From: Candidatus Sumerlaeia bacterium | GTDB taxonomy: Bacteria > Sumerlaeota > Sumerlaeia > JADFCW01 | Assembly: GCA_026415575.1 (NCBI GenBank) | Contig: JAOAGV010000003.1 | Coordinates: 17,616 to 81,615 of the forward strand | Direction of reading: 5' to 3' | Length of the DNA: 64,000 nt | In this document: positions 16,298 through 36,767 of the stretch, one piece after another | How the letters are laid out: each line of letters starts with the position of its first letter | Position numbering within the stretch: position 1 is the first letter of the stretch | Position numbers and translations under genes: made by a program | Notes under the pieces: model-generated | What the model saw: only the letters and a program-made list of their open reading frames with translations | Database searches by the model: none | What the model was told of the DNA's origin: nothing

Positions 16298-17931
16298 AGG
16301 TCATCGTTCTGGGTCTGGACGGGGCGACGCTGGAGCAGATTCTGCCGGCTGTTGCGCGCGGCGACCTGCCTGCGTTTGCACGCCTGATGCGCGAGGGCGC
16401 GTGGGAAACACTCCGCTCGACCCTGCCGGCGGAAAGCCCCGCGGCGTGGACAACCTTCGCCACCGGCGTCGGGCCCGGCCGCCATGGCATCTACGGGTTT
16501 ATGCTGCGGCGGGCGGGCAGCTATGAATACGACATCGGCACGTCGCACCATGTCCGCGTGCCGACGCTGTGGGACATTGCCGGGGCCAACGGCCTTCGCG
16601 TCGGCGTCATCCATGTGCCGTTCACCTATCCCCCGCGGCCAGTGCGCGGATTTCTGGTTGCCGGTATGATGGCACCCGACACGCGGTCGAAATTCACCTG
16701 GCCGCCGGACCTGCGCGCGGCGCTCCTGCGCGCCGTGCCGAACTACCGCGTCAGCCACGGGCTGGGGCGGTCGCGCGGGGCGGATCCGCGCGCGGTGCTG
16801 GCCCGCGACTTTTCCGACACCATCGCCGCCCGCGAGCGCGCCATGCGCTGGCTGGATGAGCGCTATCGTCCGGATTTGCTGATCTGTGTGTTCACCGTGC
16901 TGGACCGGCTTCAACATTTTCTCTGGGCCGACATGGACGCGGGCCATCCGGCGCATTCGCCGTCGGCTCCGCCCGAATACCGCGCGGCCATTGCGGCGGC
17001 CTATCGGCAGTTGGACGGCGTGATTGCGCGAACGCTCAATGCGGCGAACAGCGAGACACTTCTTGTGGTGCTTTCCGACCATGGATTTCAAGCCGTCGCC
17101 CGGACGTTCTTTGTTAACAGGTATCTGGTTGAGCGCGGCTATCTGGCCTTGACCGGCGAAAGGGGCGAGCCGGCCGGCTGGGCGCATCGGGCGGCGCGCA
17201 TGACCCGGCGCCTTTTGGCGCGCCTGCCCGGCGGGTTGGTGCCGGCCGAGCGGCTGCGCGCGCGGCACCTGATCTCGGCCGCGTTTGTCCGCGCCATTGA
17301 CTGGCCGCGGACTCGTGCATGGTTTGGCCTCGACCGCGTGCTGTGGATCAACGTCGCGGGGCGCGATCCGGCGGGATGCGTGCGGCCCGGCGCCGACTAC
17401 GAAGCGCTGCGCGCGCAACTGATCGCCGAACTGGAATCACTTCGGGACCCGGAAACAGGCTACCGTGTGGCGGCCAAAGTCCATCGCGGCGAAGAGGCGT
17501 TTGCCGGAGGCGGCCTGAGCGTTGTTCCGGATTTGCTCATCGAGCCGGCGCGCGACACTGCTGATCCTTCCGGCCGCTATGTGCTCTCGGAGCGGCTTGG
17601 AGCGGCGGGCGTTTGCGGTTTTGTCGGCCCGAGCGCGCCCGTCAGTGGCTATCACACGCCGGAGGGAGTTTTGTTTTTGTGGGGCAAAGGGGTCGCTGCC
17701 GGCGGGCGACTAACCGGCGCCTCGATTGCCGACGTTGCGCCGACCATTCTCGCCGCCTTCGGTATCTCGCCGCCTTCCGCACTGGACGGCAAGCCGCTCC
17801 TCGGCGGAAAACGGACCGATGCTGCGAGCGGTCCGCAACCGCCCGTCGCCCCCCCTGCAGATGCCGCATGGACGGAGTCGGAACGCGCGGCCGCTGAACA
17901 ACAACTCAAAGACTTGGGGTATCTGGATTGA
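16294..17931 (+). CDS. Alkaline phosphatase superfamily protein (NPP/phosphodiesterase-like), paralog 1
   Basis: Start MKVIVLGLDG at 16294; LRSTLPAESPAAW, LDRLQH, SDHGF, GYHTPEG; ends LKDLGYLD. Confidence 0.88.
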   Translation: MKVIVLGLDGATLEQILPAVARGDLPAFARLMREGAWETLRSTLPAESPAAWTTFATGVGPGRHGIYGFMLRRAGSYEYDIGTSHHVRVPTLWDIAGANGLRVGVIHVPFTYPPRPVRGFLVAGMMAPDTRSKFTWPPDLRAALLRAVPNYRVSHGLGRSRGADPRAVLARDFSDTIAARERAMRWLDERYRPDLLICVFTVLDRLQHFLWADMDAGHPAHSPSAPPEYRAAIAAAYRQLDGVIARTLNAANSETLLVVLSDHGFQAVARTFFVNRYLVERGYLALTGERGEPAGWAHRAARMTRRLLARLPGGLVPAERLRARHLISAAFVRAIDWPRTRAWFGLDRVLWINVAGRDPAGCVRPGADYEALRAQLIAELESLRDPETGYRVAAKVHRGEEAFAGGGLSVVPDLLIEPARDTADPSGRYVLSERLGAAGVCGFVGPSAPVSGYHTPEGVLFLWGKGVAAGGRLTGASIADVAPTILAAFGISPPSALDGKPLLGGKRTDAASGPQPPVAPPADAAWTESERAAAEQQLKDLGYLD

Positions 17932-28966: not shown

Positions 28967-29623
28967 ATGCATGAAGAAACCGGCGATGTCGTGAATCATG
29001 TCGGCTTGAGTCAGCTCGTTTATCAGAAAGTCAAAGCACTTATTCTGAATAACGTGCTGGCTCCCGGTCAGAAAATCACGCAAGAGGAAGTCGCCCGACG
29101 GCTCGGTGTCAGCCGCACCCCCCTGCTCAAGGCTTTGCAGATGCTCGAAAGCGAAATGCTGGTTGAGTCCATTCCGCGTCGGGGCGTTTTTGTCAAACGC
29201 ATGGACCTTCGGGAAATCCGCGATGCGTTTGATTGCCGCGAGGCGTTGGAGAGTATCGCCACACGGCTGGCCGCCGAAAAAATCACCGATGCCGAGGTGG
29301 CTGAGATCCGCTTGCTGTTTGCTCCGTTTCTGGCCGAGCGCGACCGGATTGATCTGAAGCAATACGAGGCGGCCGACCGGCGGTTTCACGCGCGAATTGT
29401 CGAAATCAGCGGCAACCGTATTCTCGCCAATCTTGAAGTGCTGGGCAATATCCAGCTGATTGTCTATCAGCGGGGGCTGATCCGTCCGCCGTCGGAGACG
29501 CTGCCCGAGCATATGGCCATCATCGAGGCTTTGGAGAAGCACGACAGCGAGACGGCGGAACAGTTGATGCGCGCGCATTTCAAAGCCTCGCGCGACCGGA
29601 TAGACCAGATGTTGCGCGAATAG
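28967..29623 (+). CDS. GntR family regulator (FCD domain)
   Basis: LAPGQKI...VARRLGVSRTP wHTH; ADRRFH..I...SGN..L, EHMAIIEAL, MRAH. Confidence 0.93.
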   Translation: MHEETGDVVNHVGLSQLVYQKVKALILNNVLAPGQKITQEEVARRLGVSRTPLLKALQMLESEMLVESIPRRGVFVKRMDLREIRDAFDCREALESIATRLAAEKITDAEVAEIRLLFAPFLAERDRIDLKQYEAADRRFHARIVEISGNRILANLEVLGNIQLIVYQRGLIRPPSETLPEHMAIIEALEKHDSETAEQLMRAHFKASRDRIDQMLRE

Positions 29624-29876: not shown

Positions 29877-30923
29877 ATGAAAAGGCAAGAAGTGTATTTA
29901 AAGGCTGTGCTGGTGCTCGCGATGTCGGTTGTGTTGAATTCACTGGCATTGCCACAAGGGCCGGTGGCCCATTGGCCGCTGGATGGCAACGGCAACGACA
30001 TCAGCGGGAACAACCTGCACGGCACGCTCAACGGTAATGTGACGCCTACGTCCGACCGTCTGGGGATCAACAACAAGGCGATGCGGTTTGGTGGCGGGGC
30101 CAATGACTATATTACTGTGCCGGACAGTCCGCCGCTGCAAATCACGGGCGCGCTGACGTTGGCCGGCTGGGCGTATCTGACGACGACAACGAACAACCCG
30201 CGGATTGTGGCCAAGGGCGGGGCCAGTGGACAGCGCTGCTGGGGGCTATGCGTCGAGGGGGCATCGGGCGGCATTGTACGGCCGGGGAATTTTCAGATCG
30301 CCTCGAACTCGACCACCAACCTCAGCTGCCTGACATCCGGCCCTGTTCCGTTGAACCAGTGGTTCCATCTGGCCGGTGTGTTCCGCCCCGGTGTGGCTAT
30401 GGAGATTTATCTCAACGGGCGGCTGAGCCGCACATCGGCCACGGTTCGCACTACGCACTTCAACAATACGCTTGGCGTGATGATCGGCAATCGCGCCGGC
30501 GCCACCAATGTGGGCTGGAAGGGCGATTTGGATGATATCCGGGTTTATGATCGTGCATTGAGTGCGGCGGAAATTGCCGCACTGGCCGTTTATGCCCCGG
30601 TCACCACGCCGTCGGCACCCACGCTGACGCGCGCGCAGGCGGGCGACCGACAGGTGTTGCTGGAATGGACTGCCCCTTCGGGCACGGTGAACGGCTATCG
30701 GGTGTATCGGAGCCAGACCAGCGGCGGGCCCTATACGCTTGCAACCAGTACGACCACGCAGTTGACGGCCACGGTCACGGGGTTGACCAACGGCACGACG
30801 TATTATTTTGTGGTGCGGGCCTACAACTCGGCGGGCGAAAGCCCCAATTCCAACCAGTTGTCGGCAACGCCGGAATCGGGCGTGAGCTTGGGTACGCGCC
30901 GCTGGGAATTGTATGAACGATAA
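29877..30923 (+). CDS. Secreted LamG-like jellyroll + fibronectin type III protein
   Basis: Sec signal; AHWPLDGN, QWFHLAG, YLNG, GDLDDIRVYDRALSAAEI; FN3 (W..P....GYRVYRS, LTNGTTYYFVVRAYN..GES..SN); AGGAG RBS. Confidence 0.87.
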   Translation: MKRQEVYLKAVLVLAMSVVLNSLALPQGPVAHWPLDGNGNDISGNNLHGTLNGNVTPTSDRLGINNKAMRFGGGANDYITVPDSPPLQITGALTLAGWAYLTTTTNNPRIVAKGGASGQRCWGLCVEGASGGIVRPGNFQIASNSTTNLSCLTSGPVPLNQWFHLAGVFRPGVAMEIYLNGRLSRTSATVRTTHFNNTLGVMIGNRAGATNVGWKGDLDDIRVYDRALSAAEIAALAVYAPVTTPSAPTLTRAQAGDRQVLLEWTAPSGTVNGYRVYRSQTSGGPYTLATSTTTQLTATVTGLTNGTTYYFVVRAYNSAGESPNSNQLSATPESGVSLGTRRWELYER

Positions 30924-31055
30924 TCAGTTTTGCCACTGAAGGGCGCCGGCGGGTAGCGGCGTCGCGCAGGCGCGCCAAAAAGCTGTTTTCCATCCGAACC
31001 AAATACGTGTTGTTTCGGGGCAGGGGGAAAGGGAGAAAAATGTAGTTCAATCGGC

Positions 31056-31074
31056 TTGTAATACAAACATACAA
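31056..31074. promoter_or_regulatory. Candidate GntR-type operator upstream of pilin-like gene
   Basis: Palindrome TTGTA-A-TACAA (31056-31066) plus extra ATACAA half-site; TTGACA at 31091. Confidence 0.45.
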
Positions 31075-31193
31075 GGCATGACGATTTTGCTTGACAGCCC
31101 GCGGCAGTTTAAGGACGAGTTGCCAATAGAACGAGCGGGACAAGGGGTTTTGGTATTTATCCCCATATTATCATCATAAAAGGAGAACACAGC

Positions 31194-31859
31194 ATGAAAA
31201 CGCACCGGGAACAAGGATTCACCCTGATCGAGCTGCTGATTGTCGTGGCGATCATCGCCATTCTGGCGGCGATCGCCATCCCGAACTTTCTGGAGGCGCA
31301 GGTGCGCGCCAAGGTTTCGCGCGCCAAGTCGGACATGCGCTCGATCGCCACAGCCCAGGAAGCCTATATGGTGGACTGGAACTCCTATACGTATAAGGAC
31401 GCCGGGGACAACATGCAGCAGCCGACCTATATCGAAGGGCTGAAGTTCCTGACCTCGCCGATTGCGTATATTACGTCGCTTCCGCATGATTCCTTCGGCG
31501 GCTACAAGGACTCGCCCGGCTGGATGAAACCGATGTTCGAGTTTGGCTCCGGATCGGCCACCGAAAAAGTCTCGAGCGGACCGCCCGACAATCCCAACCG
31601 GCTCGGTATGCCCGCCGATACGTTCCTCATCCGGTCGGTTGGCCCCGACGCGGTGGATAACACGAACATCAACTCGTATCCGTGGCCGCCGACGCGCAGT
31701 CCGGAAGGCTTGATGAACCAGACGGGGGTCAACGCGGTGCTGTCGCAACTGTACGACCCGACCAACGGAACGGTCAGCTTTGGCGACATTTACCGTGTGG
31801 GAGGCGTGAAGCCCGAAGGTCCGCAGTTCGACGTGCTGTTTGCCGCTGCGTCCAAGTAA
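31194..31859 (+). CDS. Type IV pilin/T2SS pseudopilin-like protein (prepilin N-terminal cleavage/methylation motif)
   Basis: MKTHREQG|FTLIELLIVVAIIAILAAIAIPNF class III signal with E5; GspG-like RSVGPD motif; AAGGAG RBS. Confidence 0.92.
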   Translation: MKTHREQGFTLIELLIVVAIIAILAAIAIPNFLEAQVRAKVSRAKSDMRSIATAQEAYMVDWNSYTYKDAGDNMQQPTYIEGLKFLTSPIAYITSLPHDSFGGYKDSPGWMKPMFEFGSGSATEKVSSGPPDNPNRLGMPADTFLIRSVGPDAVDNTNINSYPWPPTRSPEGLMNQTGVNAVLSQLYDPTNGTVSFGDIYRVGGVKPEGPQFDVLFAAASK

Positions 31860-32007
31860 CCGCGTTTCGTTCGGCTGGACGCGGATTCGGCGCATTCTTT
31901 ATTGGAGAGAGGAGGAACGGACGATTGTTTTTCCTTCTCAGGAATCATGGCAAGCCAAGGAAAGGCTGGTTCCTGAGTCATTTTACATCATCCCACGAGG
32001 TGCAATC

Positions 32008-34203
32008 ATGAAAGGAAAGTGCATTCTGGCAGTTTTGGTTGTGTCCCTTTCGGCCCAGACGCTGTGGGCGCAACCCAAGCGGGTGATATTCATCCGCAAC
32101 ACCGGCGCCTCCGACTACGCGACAGCCGACGTGAACATTATCCGCGCGATTGCCACGTCCGGCTACGTCCGCTACGAGGGCTTTGGCATCCTTGGTCTTG
32201 GTTGGACGGTCACCGAGGTGCAAGAGCGAACGGATCAGCAGACATATACGGCTGCGGACACCGATTTGATTTTTGTCTCTCAGACTATCTCGTCGGGCAA
32301 TATTGAGGATCATTCGGACGATCCGGTCGGTGTAATCATGACCGAGCAGGCGCTTTACGATGACGACACCGGCAACAACTGGGCGGGGCGTCCCCGGTCG
32401 GAAATGAGTTTGTCGGACGGTGCGGCGCAAATTAACCCGATGACCCATGTCCGAATTGTGGACAACACCCATCCGATTACCAGCATCTTCACGTCCGGCA
32501 CAACAATACAGCTATTTGAGAACCGTCCGCCCAATCCGCCCCCCCAAGGCGGTGTGTCCGTTTTGCCTCTCGGCGCTGGTGTGCGGCGTCTGGCGGCGCT
32601 TTCGGCCACAGACAACCGGTTCCCGTTGGTTGCCGCCGATACCGGTGCGGCGCTTCGGCCGCGTGTGGGGACGGCACCGGCCCGCCGCGTCAACCTCGGC
32701 TACCACAACAACGCCATGGACTTTCCCACCAGCGCAGGCGTGGTGTTGTTGCTTCGCACCTGTCAGTGGGCGGCGGGTGTGACGCCGACGGTGGACTTTT
32801 CATCGGTGCAAATGGCTGCCGTGGCCTCGGCCACGCGTGCTTTCGGCTCGCCCTTCTACCAGATCGGCGATGTAACAACCGCCACCATTACCATAGTGCA
32901 CCGCGCCAACAGCAACCCCTTGATAGTCCGCGAAGTGATCCCCTCGGGCTGGACGGCGTCGGATATCAGCCATGGCGGCACGTTCAATGCCAGCACGGGT
33001 GAAATCACCTGGAACCTCAATTTTACGGGAACCACCGTGCTGCGGTATTCATTCCTGCCCAAGGCCAACGTCAACACCTCGTCGCAGTTCTCGGGCACAA
33101 CGACGGACGCGGCTGGCTTTGTCACGCAGATCATGGGTACGGTGAATCTGAACGAATTCGACGCGAAGCCAATTATTTATGTAAAATTCGTGTCGTCCAC
33201 GCCGCGGTATGATGACGTGGCGCGCAATGTGCTCGGAACGGTGGGCTACACCAGCGGCTCGATCAGCGTCAAGGGCTTGGGCTATCCGATCTGGACGCTG
33301 ACGGAAAACGATGCGGAAGAGGCCACGTCGTTCACGACCAACCACGGCGTGCTTCTGTTCATCTCGCACTCGGTCGGCACCGAAGCTAACATCGCGTATC
33401 ACACCAAGGACAATATCCCGATTCTGATGACCAAGTCGGGAATGTTCAACAACACCGCCCCGCCAATGAGTGACATGTATTTCTGCACGGGCACGAGCAG
33501 TGCGGCCGGGGCGATGGGTTTCAACATCGTCGCCACGACACACCCGATCACCTCGATCTTTCCGCTTGGATTCCTGCAGCTGTGGCGCGGCGGCGCGTCG
33601 GCGCCGGTCATCGGGGCGGGAACCGGCACGTTCGGCTCGTCGGTGATCAAGCTGGCGGGCTATCCGGTCACGCCGTTGAATCCCAACCCGACGTCGGTCA
33701 CCTTGGCTGTGGCGGAAGCGGGCGAAAGCGGCTTCATGACTCCGGCGGCTGCGCAGCCCTATGTCAGCCCCAAGCGCCGGGCCATTCTCGGCTATCAGGA
33801 GTTCACGCTGGATAACCCGACAGCCAACGGCATCTACTTGCTGCAACGCACCGCCCAGTGGTTGATCGGCGACAACGTGACGGCGGGCGCCAATGCACCG
33901 GCGGCACCGACCAACCTGACGTCGGTCCAGTCGGGCATTTCCGTTCAATTGAACTGGCAGACCGTGGCCAACGCCAACGGCTATGCAATCCAGCGCAAGG
34001 TGGGCGACACCGGCACGTATCAGGACATTGGCAAGGTGCGCTACAACACGCCGACGTTCATGGATTCGGGCGTGGGAATTGGCAAGACCTACTACTATCG
34101 CGTCCGGGCATTCAACGTGACGGGCGAAAGCGGCTACTCGAACGAGACCAGCATCACGTTCCAGCCGAGCCTGAACGTGCAGCGGTGGGAGCATTACCGC
34201 TAA
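32008..34203 (+). CDS. Secreted multidomain protein: two internally repeated alpha/beta domains, an Ig-like spacer and a C-terminal FN3
   Basis: Start MKGKCILAVLVVSLSAQTLWA (GAGG RBS, ATG 32008); THPITSIF occurs twice; PAAPTNL...W...YYYRVRAFN..GES.YSN FN3. Confidence 0.8.
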   Translation: MKGKCILAVLVVSLSAQTLWAQPKRVIFIRNTGASDYATADVNIIRAIATSGYVRYEGFGILGLGWTVTEVQERTDQQTYTAADTDLIFVSQTISSGNIEDHSDDPVGVIMTEQALYDDDTGNNWAGRPRSEMSLSDGAAQINPMTHVRIVDNTHPITSIFTSGTTIQLFENRPPNPPPQGGVSVLPLGAGVRRLAALSATDNRFPLVAADTGAALRPRVGTAPARRVNLGYHNNAMDFPTSAGVVLLLRTCQWAAGVTPTVDFSSVQMAAVASATRAFGSPFYQIGDVTTATITIVHRANSNPLIVREVIPSGWTASDISHGGTFNASTGEITWNLNFTGTTVLRYSFLPKANVNTSSQFSGTTTDAAGFVTQIMGTVNLNEFDAKPIIYVKFVSSTPRYDDVARNVLGTVGYTSGSISVKGLGYPIWTLTENDAEEATSFTTNHGVLLFISHSVGTEANIAYHTKDNIPILMTKSGMFNNTAPPMSDMYFCTGTSSAAGAMGFNIVATTHPITSIFPLGFLQLWRGGASAPVIGAGTGTFGSSVIKLAGYPVTPLNPNPTSVTLAVAEAGESGFMTPAAAQPYVSPKRRAILGYQEFTLDNPTANGIYLLQRTAQWLIGDNVTAGANAPAAPTNLTSVQSGISVQLNWQTVANANGYAIQRKVGDTGTYQDIGKVRYNTPTFMDSGVGIGKTYYYRVRAFNVTGESGYSNETSITFQPSLNVQRWEHYR

Positions 34204-34230
34204 ACTGTTGCACATTTCGCCAATGATGTA

Positions 34231-34274
34231 GCCCCGGCCGGGCGGTTCTTCCTTCCGGCCGGGGTTTCTTTTTT
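34231..34274 (+). terminator. Rho-independent terminator
   Basis: GCCCCGGCCGG / CCGGCCGGGGT stem followed by TTTCTTTTTT, about 28 nt after the stop at 34203. Confidence 0.8.
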
Positions 34275-34397
34275 CTGCTTATAGGTTCGGGGAAAGGGGC
34301 CCTCCGCATTTTTGCTTGTCATTGCGTCCCAATGCCCTCATAAACATTTCAAGAATGCGCGGGACGCTCGTGCGCCTGAAGTGGTTGTTGCAGCCGT

Positions 34398-36767
34398 ATG
34401 CAAGAAGAAAGACATCCTGCCAAGTTCGCTTCCTGTTGGCTCATACTCAGGACCTTTGTTGTTCTCTTGCTGCTCACGCCGATGCCGGCTGCGGCATCGG
34501 TCGTTATCAACGAAATCATGTATCATCCGCCGGACGACGATGAGAGCAAAGAGTATATCGAGTTACACAATACCGGTGCGACGACCGTTTCTCTGGCCGG
34601 CTGGTCGTTGGCCGATGCTGTGACCTATACCTTCCCTGTCGGCCAGACATTGCAGCCCGGTGGCTATCTGGTCGTGGCGAAATCCATTGCCTCGTTTCAT
34701 GCCCGCTATCCGGCCAGCACGGCCACGGTGATTGGCAATTACGGCGGGCAGCTGTCCAACGGCGGGGAAACGATTCTCTTATATGATACCTCGGCAACCT
34801 TGGTGGACCGGGTGGCCTACGATGACGCCGGCTACTGGCCCGAAGCAGCCGACGGCGGTGGTGCGTCGCTTGAGCTGATTCATCCGGGGCTGGACAACAA
34901 TGTGGCCCACAGCTGGGCGGCCAGCAGTCCGTCCGAAACGCCGGGATTTCGTAATTCCTGCTATGCGGCCAACCCTCCGCCATTTTTGGTATTTCCCCGC
35001 CACAGCCCGGCGGTCCCGCGTCCCAGTGATCCGATTACCGTGACCGTCCGGGCTTACGACAATTCTGCTGTAGTCTGGGTGGAATGTTCCTACAAAGATG
35101 AGGCCACGTCGCCGCCCTTTACCCAACGGGCGATGCTCGACGACGGGCTGCACGGTGATGGCGCGGCAGGCGACGGCGTCTATGGCACAACGCTTCCGCC
35201 CCAGCCCCAAGGCCGCATCCTTGAGTTTTACATGCGGGCATTTGACGACACCCTTCAAGCGCGGGCGATTCCCCCGTCCGCCCCTGCGGCCAACTTTCTT
35301 CTTCAGGTGGACGGGCAGGCTGTGATGACGACCTCGCCGGTGTATCGAATTATCATGAAGGCGGCCGACCATGCCACCTTGCACGATCCGGTCAACCGGC
35401 TGAGCAACGTGCTGCGGAATGCGACCTTTATCTGCGGCGACGAGATTTACTACACCGTCGGCGTGCGGCTGCGCGGCAAGGGGTCGCGCAGCGCCGCCCG
35501 AAAGTCCTACCGCGTTCAGTTCACGCCGCAAGAGCCGTATCACGGCATTGAAAACATGAACCTCAACGCGCAGTGGATTCGCTGCCAGTTCCTCGACATG
35601 GATCTCATGCGCCGCGCGGGCATACCGGCACCGGCAACCCAATATGCCTACCTCATCTTCAAGTATCAGGACAAGAACACCTACTATCTTTACGACGGCG
35701 TCCCGTCGGGTGAACCCAACCTGCTCATGATGGGCTGGCGCATTCAGATGCAGGACATCAACAAGGACTTTCTGCGCCAGTGGTTTCCCGGCCGCTTCGA
35801 CGGCAACCTGTATCGCGGCGTGTATGTTTCGGCGACCGAGCAGGCCGACCTGACCTACTACGGCCCCGACAAGAACCGCTATCGGCGCGCGTATGAGAAG
35901 CACACCAACGAAGCCGCTGATGATTTCTCCGATGTCATTCGCCTCTGCGATGTGTTCACCAATACGCCGGATACGTCCTTCACGGCGGCCATGCATCAAT
36001 ATATCAACCACGAGGAGTGGTTGCGGTTTTGGGCATGTCTGGCGATGATGAACATCGAGGAGACGGACATCTACAATACGCGCGGCGACGACTACTACAT
36101 GTACTTTGAGCCGAACGGCACATCCCTTCCGCGTCCGGTTCTGTTGCCGTGGGATCTTGATTCGGCGAATCTGCATCCAACCCAGACGATCTTTGCCTGC
36201 ACGCTGCCGCGCGTGCAGCGTTTCATCGAAAACCCCGACTTTACGCCCAAGTATTTTTACTATATTCAAGAAATGCTGGACCATCATTATCGCCTCGACA
36301 TCATGCTGCCGCTGATTCAATCGGTGGCACCCTACTACGGTTTCGAGACCTCGCCGGCATCCGGCGTGGCGCGCGATACGCTCACGATCCCGCAACTGAC
36401 CAGCTATGTCACGGCGCGGATTGCTTATCTGGAGAGCGTAATCTCGCGCCAGCTGACCGTGCAGGTCTCCGGCGCACAGAAGATCGGCAATTTATATGTT
36501 GCCGCGCAGCCGACGGTTCAGCTAAGCGGCCGCGGCTTGACGGCGCTGACCCGCCGCGTGCGGGTTAACGGCCACAACGCCGGCTATCAGTCGCTGACAG
36601 GCAATTGGGGCAGCTATACCCTTTCCTTGCAGCCGGGCTTGAACACGGTGGTCGTGGATTGTTTGACCACAGCGGGTGCCGTGGCCACCAGCCGGACGCT
36701 TCAGATTGTCTATGACACGTCCCCCAGCGCTGCCGTCCATCGCTGGCAGCAGTATCCGCCGGAATGA
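34398..36767 (+). CDS. Secreted lamin-tail-domain + CotH-family kinase protein
   Basis: Signal peptide; VVINEIMYHP..EYIELHN..LSNGGE..ADGGGASLEL (lamin tail); DDGLHGDGAAGDGVYG; GVRLRGKGSR..RKSY, LPWDLD (CotH). Confidence 0.85.
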   Translation: MQEERHPAKFASCWLILRTFVVLLLLTPMPAAASVVINEIMYHPPDDDESKEYIELHNTGATTVSLAGWSLADAVTYTFPVGQTLQPGGYLVVAKSIASFHARYPASTATVIGNYGGQLSNGGETILLYDTSATLVDRVAYDDAGYWPEAADGGGASLELIHPGLDNNVAHSWAASSPSETPGFRNSCYAANPPPFLVFPRHSPAVPRPSDPITVTVRAYDNSAVVWVECSYKDEATSPPFTQRAMLDDGLHGDGAAGDGVYGTTLPPQPQGRILEFYMRAFDDTLQARAIPPSAPAANFLLQVDGQAVMTTSPVYRIIMKAADHATLHDPVNRLSNVLRNATFICGDEIYYTVGVRLRGKGSRSAARKSYRVQFTPQEPYHGIENMNLNAQWIRCQFLDMDLMRRAGIPAPATQYAYLIFKYQDKNTYYLYDGVPSGEPNLLMMGWRIQMQDINKDFLRQWFPGRFDGNLYRGVYVSATEQADLTYYGPDKNRYRRAYEKHTNEAADDFSDVIRLCDVFTNTPDTSFTAAMHQYINHEEWLRFWACLAMMNIEETDIYNTRGDDYYMYFEPNGTSLPRPVLLPWDLDSANLHPTQTIFACTLPRVQRFIENPDFTPKYFYYIQEMLDHHYRLDIMLPLIQSVAPYYGFETSPASGVARDTLTIPQLTSYVTARIAYLESVISRQLTVQVSGAQKIGNLYVAAQPTVQLSGRGLTALTRRVRVNGHNAGYQSLTGNWGSYTLSLQPGLNTVVVDCLTTAGAVATSRTLQIVYDTSPSAAVHRWQQYPPE

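Follow-up and report, generated by a model that had tools for sequence, protein, structure and literature searches.

Why do three neighbouring proteins of unrelated domain architecture, each with a signal-peptide-like N-terminus, finish on nearly the same handful of residues? The question is raised by a stretch of 64,000 nucleotides (the window: positions 17,616 to 81,615 of contig JAOAGV010000003.1, assembly GCA_026415575.1) from a Candidatus Sumerlaeia bacterium, whose genome is called G000 here. Three co-oriented open reading frames (ORFs) of the window close on a C-terminal W-x-x-Y (W..Y) motif followed by the stop codon, which we call the tail. Since it fits no catalogued sorting signal, the tail is probably an undescribed address label for moving proteins out of, or onto, the cell, and we infer that it serves in export, anchoring or docking. 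On balance we favour a short unstructured C-terminal targeting tag of Sec-exported proteins that is read after Sec by a component of the envelope. The genes and tails concerned are the following.

29877..30923, + strand: tail protein 1, 348 amino acids (aa); signal peptide, Laminin_G_3 (residues 74-234), fn3 (residues 246-330), linker and tail (domains by Pfam)
30885..30923, + strand: tail of protein 1, SLGTRRWELYER plus stop (ORF reading)
31194..31859, + strand: GspG-like pseudopilin with a prepilin-type N-terminal methylation motif, between tail genes 1 and 2 (NCBIfam and Pfam N_methyl / T2SSG)
32005..34203, + strand: tail protein 2; signal peptide (MKGKCILAVLV...), some 600 aa matching no family, fn3 (residues 634-717 of 732) and tail; the longest ORF begins at 31840
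34168..34203, + strand: tail of protein 2, SLNVQRWEHYR plus stop (ORF reading)
34398..36767, + strand: tail protein 3, 789 aa; signal peptide, lamin-tail (30-141), choice-of-anchor X (245-272), CotH (356-628), C-terminal beta-rich region and tail
36726..36767, + strand: tail of protein 3, SAAVHRWQQYPPE plus stop; its three residues after the Y are the longest overhang seen

All three ORFs are present with the C-terminal ends and coordinates (stop codons included) that the initial annotation had given them, and no further ORF of the window ends in this way, as it had also maintained. The relative L001 (a Candidatus Sumerlaeota metagenome-assembled genome) has the four genes listed above in unchanged order and keeps all three tails, that of protein 3 reading SAAARRWQQYQP. 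The 3' ends of the three window genes use different codons, run into dissimilar downstream sequence and have no DNA-level repeat in common, so the likeness of the tails is selected at the protein level. An artefact of a DNA repeat or terminator was rejected, as the three window ends and 21 genome-wide RW..YR sites differ in their codons.

The tail is not confined to this locus. The survey of the assembly (4.68 Mb in 255 contigs) took in 14,573 ORFs no shorter than 100 aa, in which W..Y occurs 989 times; exactly one residue separates its Y from the stop in 50 ORFs, and 0, 2 or 3 residues do so in 5, 9 and 2 ORFs, compared with only 0-5 ORFs for every offset between 4 and 11. This amounts to a surplus of about 55 ORFs. 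In a gene set produced by a crude caller of our own (3262 genes, 1.28 million residues), 43 of the 132 occurrences of [AV]..W..Y lie 0-3 residues from the C-terminus. In total, the tail is found on about 56 proteins of G000, which belong to at least 22 unrelated families. A working set of 53 tails was used for the logo, the clustering and the adjacency counts. Five W..Y-ending ORFs (g2347, g3207, g1202, g2119, g2810) were excluded from it by eye for a mismatch with the upstream consensus and are still among the 50 genes of the signal-peptide test, and three likely true tails (C198, C215, C231) that the gene caller missed stand outside the logo, clustering, adjacency and signal-peptide counts.

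The consensus in G000 is [SAP]-[TAL]-x-[AV]-R-R-W-E-L-Y-R-COOH. In the logo of the 53 tails, the W is preceded by S/A/P at -6, T/A/L at -5, A or V at -3 (42 of 53), R at -2 (23) and R at -1 (31, otherwise S or H), and from the W onwards the sequence runs W, E/T, L, Y and then R (30), P (6), E (5) or K (3). A residue follows the Y in 49 of the 53, and it is exactly one in 46. What is conserved across the class is the shorter core [AV]-x-x-W-x-hydrophobic-Y at the extreme C-terminus, then 0-3 residues (usually one) and the stop. The S and R that the initial annotation had counted as motif positions are both local to the genus, the Arg at -1 being replaced by Asp in other families.

Carriers of the tail are mostly of the exported type. 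An N-terminal hydrophobic stretch with no later transmembrane segment was found in 43 of 50 complete tail genes and in 975 of 2951 others (odds ratio 12, Fisher p=2e-14). In a second genome of the class, G018, in which 610 kb around the sites were examined, signal-peptide-like N-termini occur in 34 of 40 tail genes and 109 of 337 other genes. Scanning of the C-termini, as proposed from the window, thus confirmed the tail as a proteome-wide feature of the extreme C-terminus that is strongly enriched on signal-peptide-type proteins compared with others.

What the tail is attached to varies widely. Stripped of their last 15 residues, the 53 carriers form 22 BLAST clusters, of which 18 have a single member, and 29 of the 53 are linked through shared domains. 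A Pfam family was found in 17 of 20 carriers, covering CARDB, LVIVD, DUF5689, LamG, fn3, CarboxypepD_reg, matrixin, S15 peptidase with PepX_C, beta-helix, BNR, FG-GAP, papain, TIG, WD40 and Y_phosphatase3. Where a C-terminal domain was matched, it ends about 15-35 residues before the stop. Domains of the choice-of-anchor type, named so by NCBI for their varied anchors, precede the tail as well (X and Q). The earlier remark that the motif follows a beta-sandwich domain therefore holds for proteins 1 and 2, in which fn3 stops 7-15 residues before it, and fails genome-wide, where many folds take this place. A run of X in the ORF of a large lamin-tail protein gene (L080, G000:C176:26218-30681) represents ambiguous or masked bases.

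The tail also stays in place when the protein ahead of it changes. Each of the 11 metagenomic homologs of the CotH protein (58-68% identity, 742 to 1332 aa long) ends in W..Y, and 10 of them have an additional beta-helix of about 540 aa ahead of the tail; in CotH proteins that lack the beta-helix, the tail attaches straight to the beta-rich region ahead of it. This gives a clean example of a tag that was kept while a domain was lost or gained. The proteins lacking the helix are the window CotH protein (789 aa) and P0013 (742 aa); those with it are P0005-P0012, P0014 and P0015. Metagenome loci of at least 59% identity possess the tail in 6 of 6 cases, one with an adjacent second tail ORF, and it occurs in 0 of 45 loci at 49% identity or less and in 0 of 3 Planctomycetota or Phycisphaerae loci. 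L011, a fragment of 1.8 kb that may cut its gene short, contained no tail ORF and was set aside. For the LamG-fn3 protein (protein 1), all four orthologs (50-100% identity) keep the tail, and among the other 116 matches listed it was seen in one, a partial protein and probably by chance. For protein 2, only two relatives were found in 5.8 billion proteins, and the one of 90% identity keeps the tail. CotH or LamG homologs from other phyla (P0057, P0060, P0071, P0084, P0107, P0115, P0123, P0217) have a different recurrent end, ...[FY][FYL]R[LI]..., at most about 8 residues from the stop; a shared C-terminal domain probably contributes it as its last strand.

Is the tail merely the edge of the domain in front of it? 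The initial annotation had named this among the findings that would undo its proposal, and it was not what we found. According to Pfam, fn3 is complete at residue 330 of 348 in protein 1 and at residue 717 of 732 in protein 2, before the tail in both. In an AlphaFold2 model of protein 1 (mean predicted local distance difference test, pLDDT, of 85), fn3 scores above 90 and has its last strand at 328-330, and residues 339-342 and 345-348 fall below 50. Further, FN3-terminal homologs from other phyla (e.g. P0162) end directly after the last strand with no tail. From these three lines of evidence, the tail is, as modelled, a flexible appendage on a short linker and not the last strand of fn3. A last strand of an FN3/Ig domain was rejected on the same grounds and because the tail also follows Y_phosphatase3, PepX_C and beta-helix, none of which is a sandwich. 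No hydrophobic helix was detected in the last 35 residues of any of the 53 tail proteins: the highest 15-residue Kyte-Doolittle mean was 1.67 (median 0.3), and 0 of 53 reach 1.8.

How far the tail extends beyond the genus depends on the pattern that is used. Patterns demanding Arg find it in its own genus only (21 matches vs 2 for the reversed control in G000, 17 vs 3 in G001). As homologs elsewhere in the class end in W..Y without Arg, we relaxed the pattern and counted [AV]xxWxxY-stop and [AV]xxWxxYx-stop in 41 genomes of the class against a reversed-pattern control, calling a genome positive if either form had 10 or more matches and no fewer than twice those of the control. On this rule, 26 of the 41 genomes and 11 of the 15 sampled families are positive, with e.g. 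62 matches vs 8 in the control in G033, 39 vs 8 in G018, 33 vs 5 in G034, 32 vs 1 in G008, 30 vs 4 in G000, 24 vs 6 in G009 and 20 vs 1 in G014, and direct reading adds further families. Even these patterns under-detect, as G010 has no excess, yet five large ORFs of the lamin-tail type that were read there end in W-x-[IVL]-[YF]. Three Planctomycetota genomes had no enrichment (3-6 matches vs 1-10 in the control). A motif restricted to the genus was thus rejected as an artefact of the Arg-demanding patterns, and the label "lineage-specific" attached to the tail at first proved too narrow.

The residues around the core differ from lineage to lineage. In G018, the 40 tail ORFs have the consensus [AS]-[AGS]-V-x-[DGE]-W-x-[LIMV]-Y-stop, in which the V at -3 is partly imposed by the search pattern and the [AS] at -5 (40 of 40) is not. 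Arg stands before the W and after the Y in G000; Asp before the W and nothing after the Y in G018 and G033; Arg-Arg before the W and Asp or Glu after the Y in G014; and Asp before the W and Arg after the Y in G003. These combinations are family-specific (tails of G000, G003, G014, G018 and G039) and may reflect drift or co-evolution with a reader.

If the tail is a targeting tag, a carrier would pass Sec and fold in the periplasm of a diderm cell with its tail exposed, where an envelope component would recognise the tail and send its bearer across or onto the outer membrane. The cell of G000 is indeed diderm (BamA and LpxC are present) and has 11 secretin-domain matches. A type II operon (G000:C181:4013-19930, L148) encodes GspE, F, G, J and K as well as a GspD of 1493 aa with ten Secretin_N repeats, and the genome holds 50 GspG-like pseudopilins. 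Five tail genes of G000 lie at most 300 nucleotides from a pseudopilin gene on the same strand, compared with 0.49 expected for random genes and 0.62 for random genes of the secreted type (p about 2e-4), and in G018 the same holds for 3 of 40 tail genes vs 0.36 expected (p=0.003). As the G018 cargo has no homolog in G000, the pairing of pseudopilin and tail recurs independently. Two tail genes (on C146 and C215) stand directly downstream of secretin genes.

This neighbourhood suggests that a pilin might bind the tail. A precedent is TcpF, whose disordered N-terminal export signal binds the minor pilin TcpB, with export through a secretin (PMC10120004); by analogy, a GspG-like pseudopilin or tip pilin might bind the tail. 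Within the targeting-tag reading, a type II secretion or type IV filament machine is the most likely reader, a tentative assignment; taken overall, export by a pilin is rather unlikely, and it is a more doubtful proposition still that the tail is the first linear, transferable and proteome-wide type II secretion or type IV filament export signal, read by an expanded GspG-like family and pushed through a secretin.

Several observations speak against this account. Two of the five adjacencies in G000 share the pseudopilin of the window, which leaves four independent loci, and about nine in ten tail genes have no pseudopilin neighbour. No tail gene of G018 stands beside a secretin gene. The number of secretin-domain matches is unrelated to the number of tails (3 each in the tail-rich G018 and G033, 12 in G010 with no pattern excess), so that secretin copy number was rejected as a correlate, and nearly every genome of the class has tails, which leaves profiling inside the class unable to point to one machine. 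Crude home-made heuristics, not SignalP or Prodigal, were used to call signal peptides and genes. Finally, TcpF has its signal at the N-terminus, with a single cargo for each pilus (PMC10120004), unlike a C-terminal tail on about 56 dispersed genes.

Other features of the machinery and of the neighbourhood may be added. Secretin-domain matches are unusually many throughout (11 in G000, 3 to 13 across the 41 genomes of the class), and the type II operon also encodes a membrane protein of 637 aa with no Pfam family. A PDZ-bearing GspC was dropped as the reader, as Pfam found no PDZ among the type II operon proteins scanned. Beyond the N-terminal helix, the GspG-like paralogs, to which the window pseudopilin belongs, have two motifs, P-[IV]-[AS]-Y-[IL]-T..P.D.F and Y-D-[PA]-[TS]-N-G-T-[VIL]-S-x-G, which are common to distant families of the class. 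A complex of the window pseudopilin (residues 30-221) with fn3 plus tail (residues 240-348), predicted in a single run, had a score of 0.00 (mark 0.32), which weighs neither for binding nor against it. Other recurrent neighbours, named by eye (response regulators, Gfo/Idh/MocA-type oxidoreductases and sulfatase-like proteins), were set aside as they are common in the genome anyway. Just upstream of the tail-gene cluster, at 28967-29623 (+), lies an ORF of 218 aa that by eye resembles a GntR-type transcription regulator.

Among the alternatives, retention at the surface survives best, although we regard it as rather unlikely. Whatever the route of export, the aromatic tail would bind non-covalently to a surface receptor, a scaffold protein, the S-layer or lipopolysaccharide and so keep the enzymes and adhesins on the cell, in the manner of a dockerin or SLH module reduced to the minimum. 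Carriers are multidomain proteins of adhesin-like and hydrolase-like character, choice-of-anchor X and Q domains stand ahead of the tail, and Trp and Tyr are typical interface residues. Moreover, lamin-tail/CotH homologs of the class (L065, L078 and L083, from genomes G012 and G003) close on dockerin-like D-x-N-x-D-G-x-x-x-x-x-D modules in place of the tail. However, both genomes also have W..YR tails (15 vs 4 in the control for G003, 9 vs 3 for G012), so that dockerin-like ends and tails are not simple alternatives, and ten residues make a small interface. A repeated receptor or cohesin-like partner was not found, in the course of work that included no systematic search for one. Docking would also leave the adjacency to pseudopilins unexplained.

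It is improbable that the tail has no signalling role at all, being either a generic structural cap or protease-resistant end that spread by recombination among paralogs, or a signal already catalogued under another name. Some spread by duplication is likely, given the 29 of 53 carriers linked by shared domains, and the literature negative given below covers open-access text only. On the other hand, 18 singleton families carry the tail, it is kept in at least 11 families of the class despite changing flanks, the AlphaFold2 model has it disordered, and no Pfam or NCBIfam match covers the C-terminus of the 14 tail proteins scanned. Weaker still is a signal for processing or modification with no role in location, on which a C-terminal processing protease (with PDZ-type recognition of free C-termini) or an enzyme modifying or cross-linking Trp and Tyr would act, so that the tail would be cut off or changed as the protein matures. 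The strict closeness to the free C-terminus, the variable and trimmable overhang of 0-3 residues after the Y and the P450-made Trp/Tyr cross-links reported at WxxY motifs in small ribosomal peptides would suit it. However, such P450 chemistry takes place in the cytoplasm on small peptides, whereas the carriers are exported proteins of 300-1800 aa, and a maturation signal would be unusual on 22 or more unrelated families that have no domain in common.

Time and again, short sorting tags at the C-terminus have opened the way to new machines of the envelope (sortase, exosortase, rhombosortase, T9SS (the system for type IX secretion) and myxosortase), and this one marks about 1.5% of the genes in an uncultivated, globally distributed phylum. 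As it lacks the design of a helix plus basic tail that underlies all those systems, its reader should work differently. The tail further offers a one-line annotation rule by which exported or surface proteins can be flagged in Sumerlaeota genomes, and a compact peptide that might be used to fish for the reader. If the reader is based on pilins, the substrate choice of type II systems would become directly testable, and a C-terminal peptide of about 10 residues on about 40-60 cargos per genome would be the long-sought substrate-recognition rule, legible in sequence across a candidate phylum.

How does the tail compare with the signals already known? The claim that none of them fits has stood up: the elements that define them (transmembrane helix plus basic tail, C-terminal domain (CTD) of the T9SS, end of an outer-membrane barrel) are all missing. 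No Pfam or NCBIfam model covers the C-terminus of the 14 tail proteins scanned (4 from the window, 10 from G018), so the look-up yielded no existing model over the tail. No published description of it was found in the open-access literature, and term searches in the main text of Sumerlaeota genomics papers returned no mention of C-terminal signals or secretion machinery.

Close to it in genomic behaviour are the tripartite signals and their enzymes, LPXTG/sortase, PEP-CTERM/exosortase, GlyGly-CTERM/rhombosortase and MYXO-CTERM/myxosortase. Like the tail, they are short C-terminal homology regions on dozens of unrelated signal-peptide proteins per genome, occur in certain lineages only and are placed behind domains of the choice-of-anchor type. 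In contrast to them, the tail has no hydrophobic helix or basic cluster after the motif, and the protein ends with the motif itself (0-3 residues before the stop). Their NCBIfam models had no match at E<=0.1 in the 4 window proteins or at E<=1 in the 10 from G018, and the regex for a PEP-CTERM-like set matched only once in the genome. The T9SS CTD (TIGR04183 / PF18962) is likewise C-terminal, and a phylum-level group bears it on many of its secreted hydrolases and adhesins, but it is a folded beta-sandwich of 70-100 aa and not some ten unstructured residues. PF18962 is found on homologs of the window CotH protein from other phyla (P0041, P0098, P0118). TIGR04183 matched nothing in G000 and G001 and gave one weak match each in 6 of the 41 genomes; the idea that the tail replaces T9SS tails was rejected, as these were not found in the class.

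Dockerins resemble the tail as C-terminal docking appendages of secreted enzymes that occupy the same position on homologs within the class. They differ in their calcium-binding, duplicated D-x-N-x-D-G loops of about 60-70 aa, not present in the tail sequences, and Pfam found no dockerin on the 23 tail proteins scanned. The beta-signal of outer-membrane proteins and YxF C-termini are read in the periplasm by BamA, BamD or the PDZ domain of DegS. An aromatic residue at or near the free C-terminus and, if the tail is a targeting tag, reading in the periplasm would be common to both, but tail carriers are soluble multidomain proteins and not barrels, the hydrophobic spacing is i, i+3, i+6 and not alternating, and 46 of the 53 tails of the genus have one more residue after the Y. 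Encapsulin cargo-loading peptides are conserved motifs of about 10 residues at the extreme C-terminus, on a flexible linker, of unrelated cargo that is cytoplasmic and encoded beside an encapsulin shell gene. The tail shares with them the short C-terminal motif on unrelated cargo and departs from them in that 43 of 50 carriers are signal-peptide-like.

The export signals of TcpF/CofJ are the parallel for a targeting tag read by a pilin. Such a signal is a terminal peptide of a Sec-exported protein that is disordered and has an essential Tyr, it depends on a pilin-based machine and a secretin, and it is specific to its own system (PMC10120004). The tail, too, appears as a disordered terminal segment on a Sec-exported protein, judged by the AlphaFold2 model of protein 1 and by the enrichment in signal peptides.

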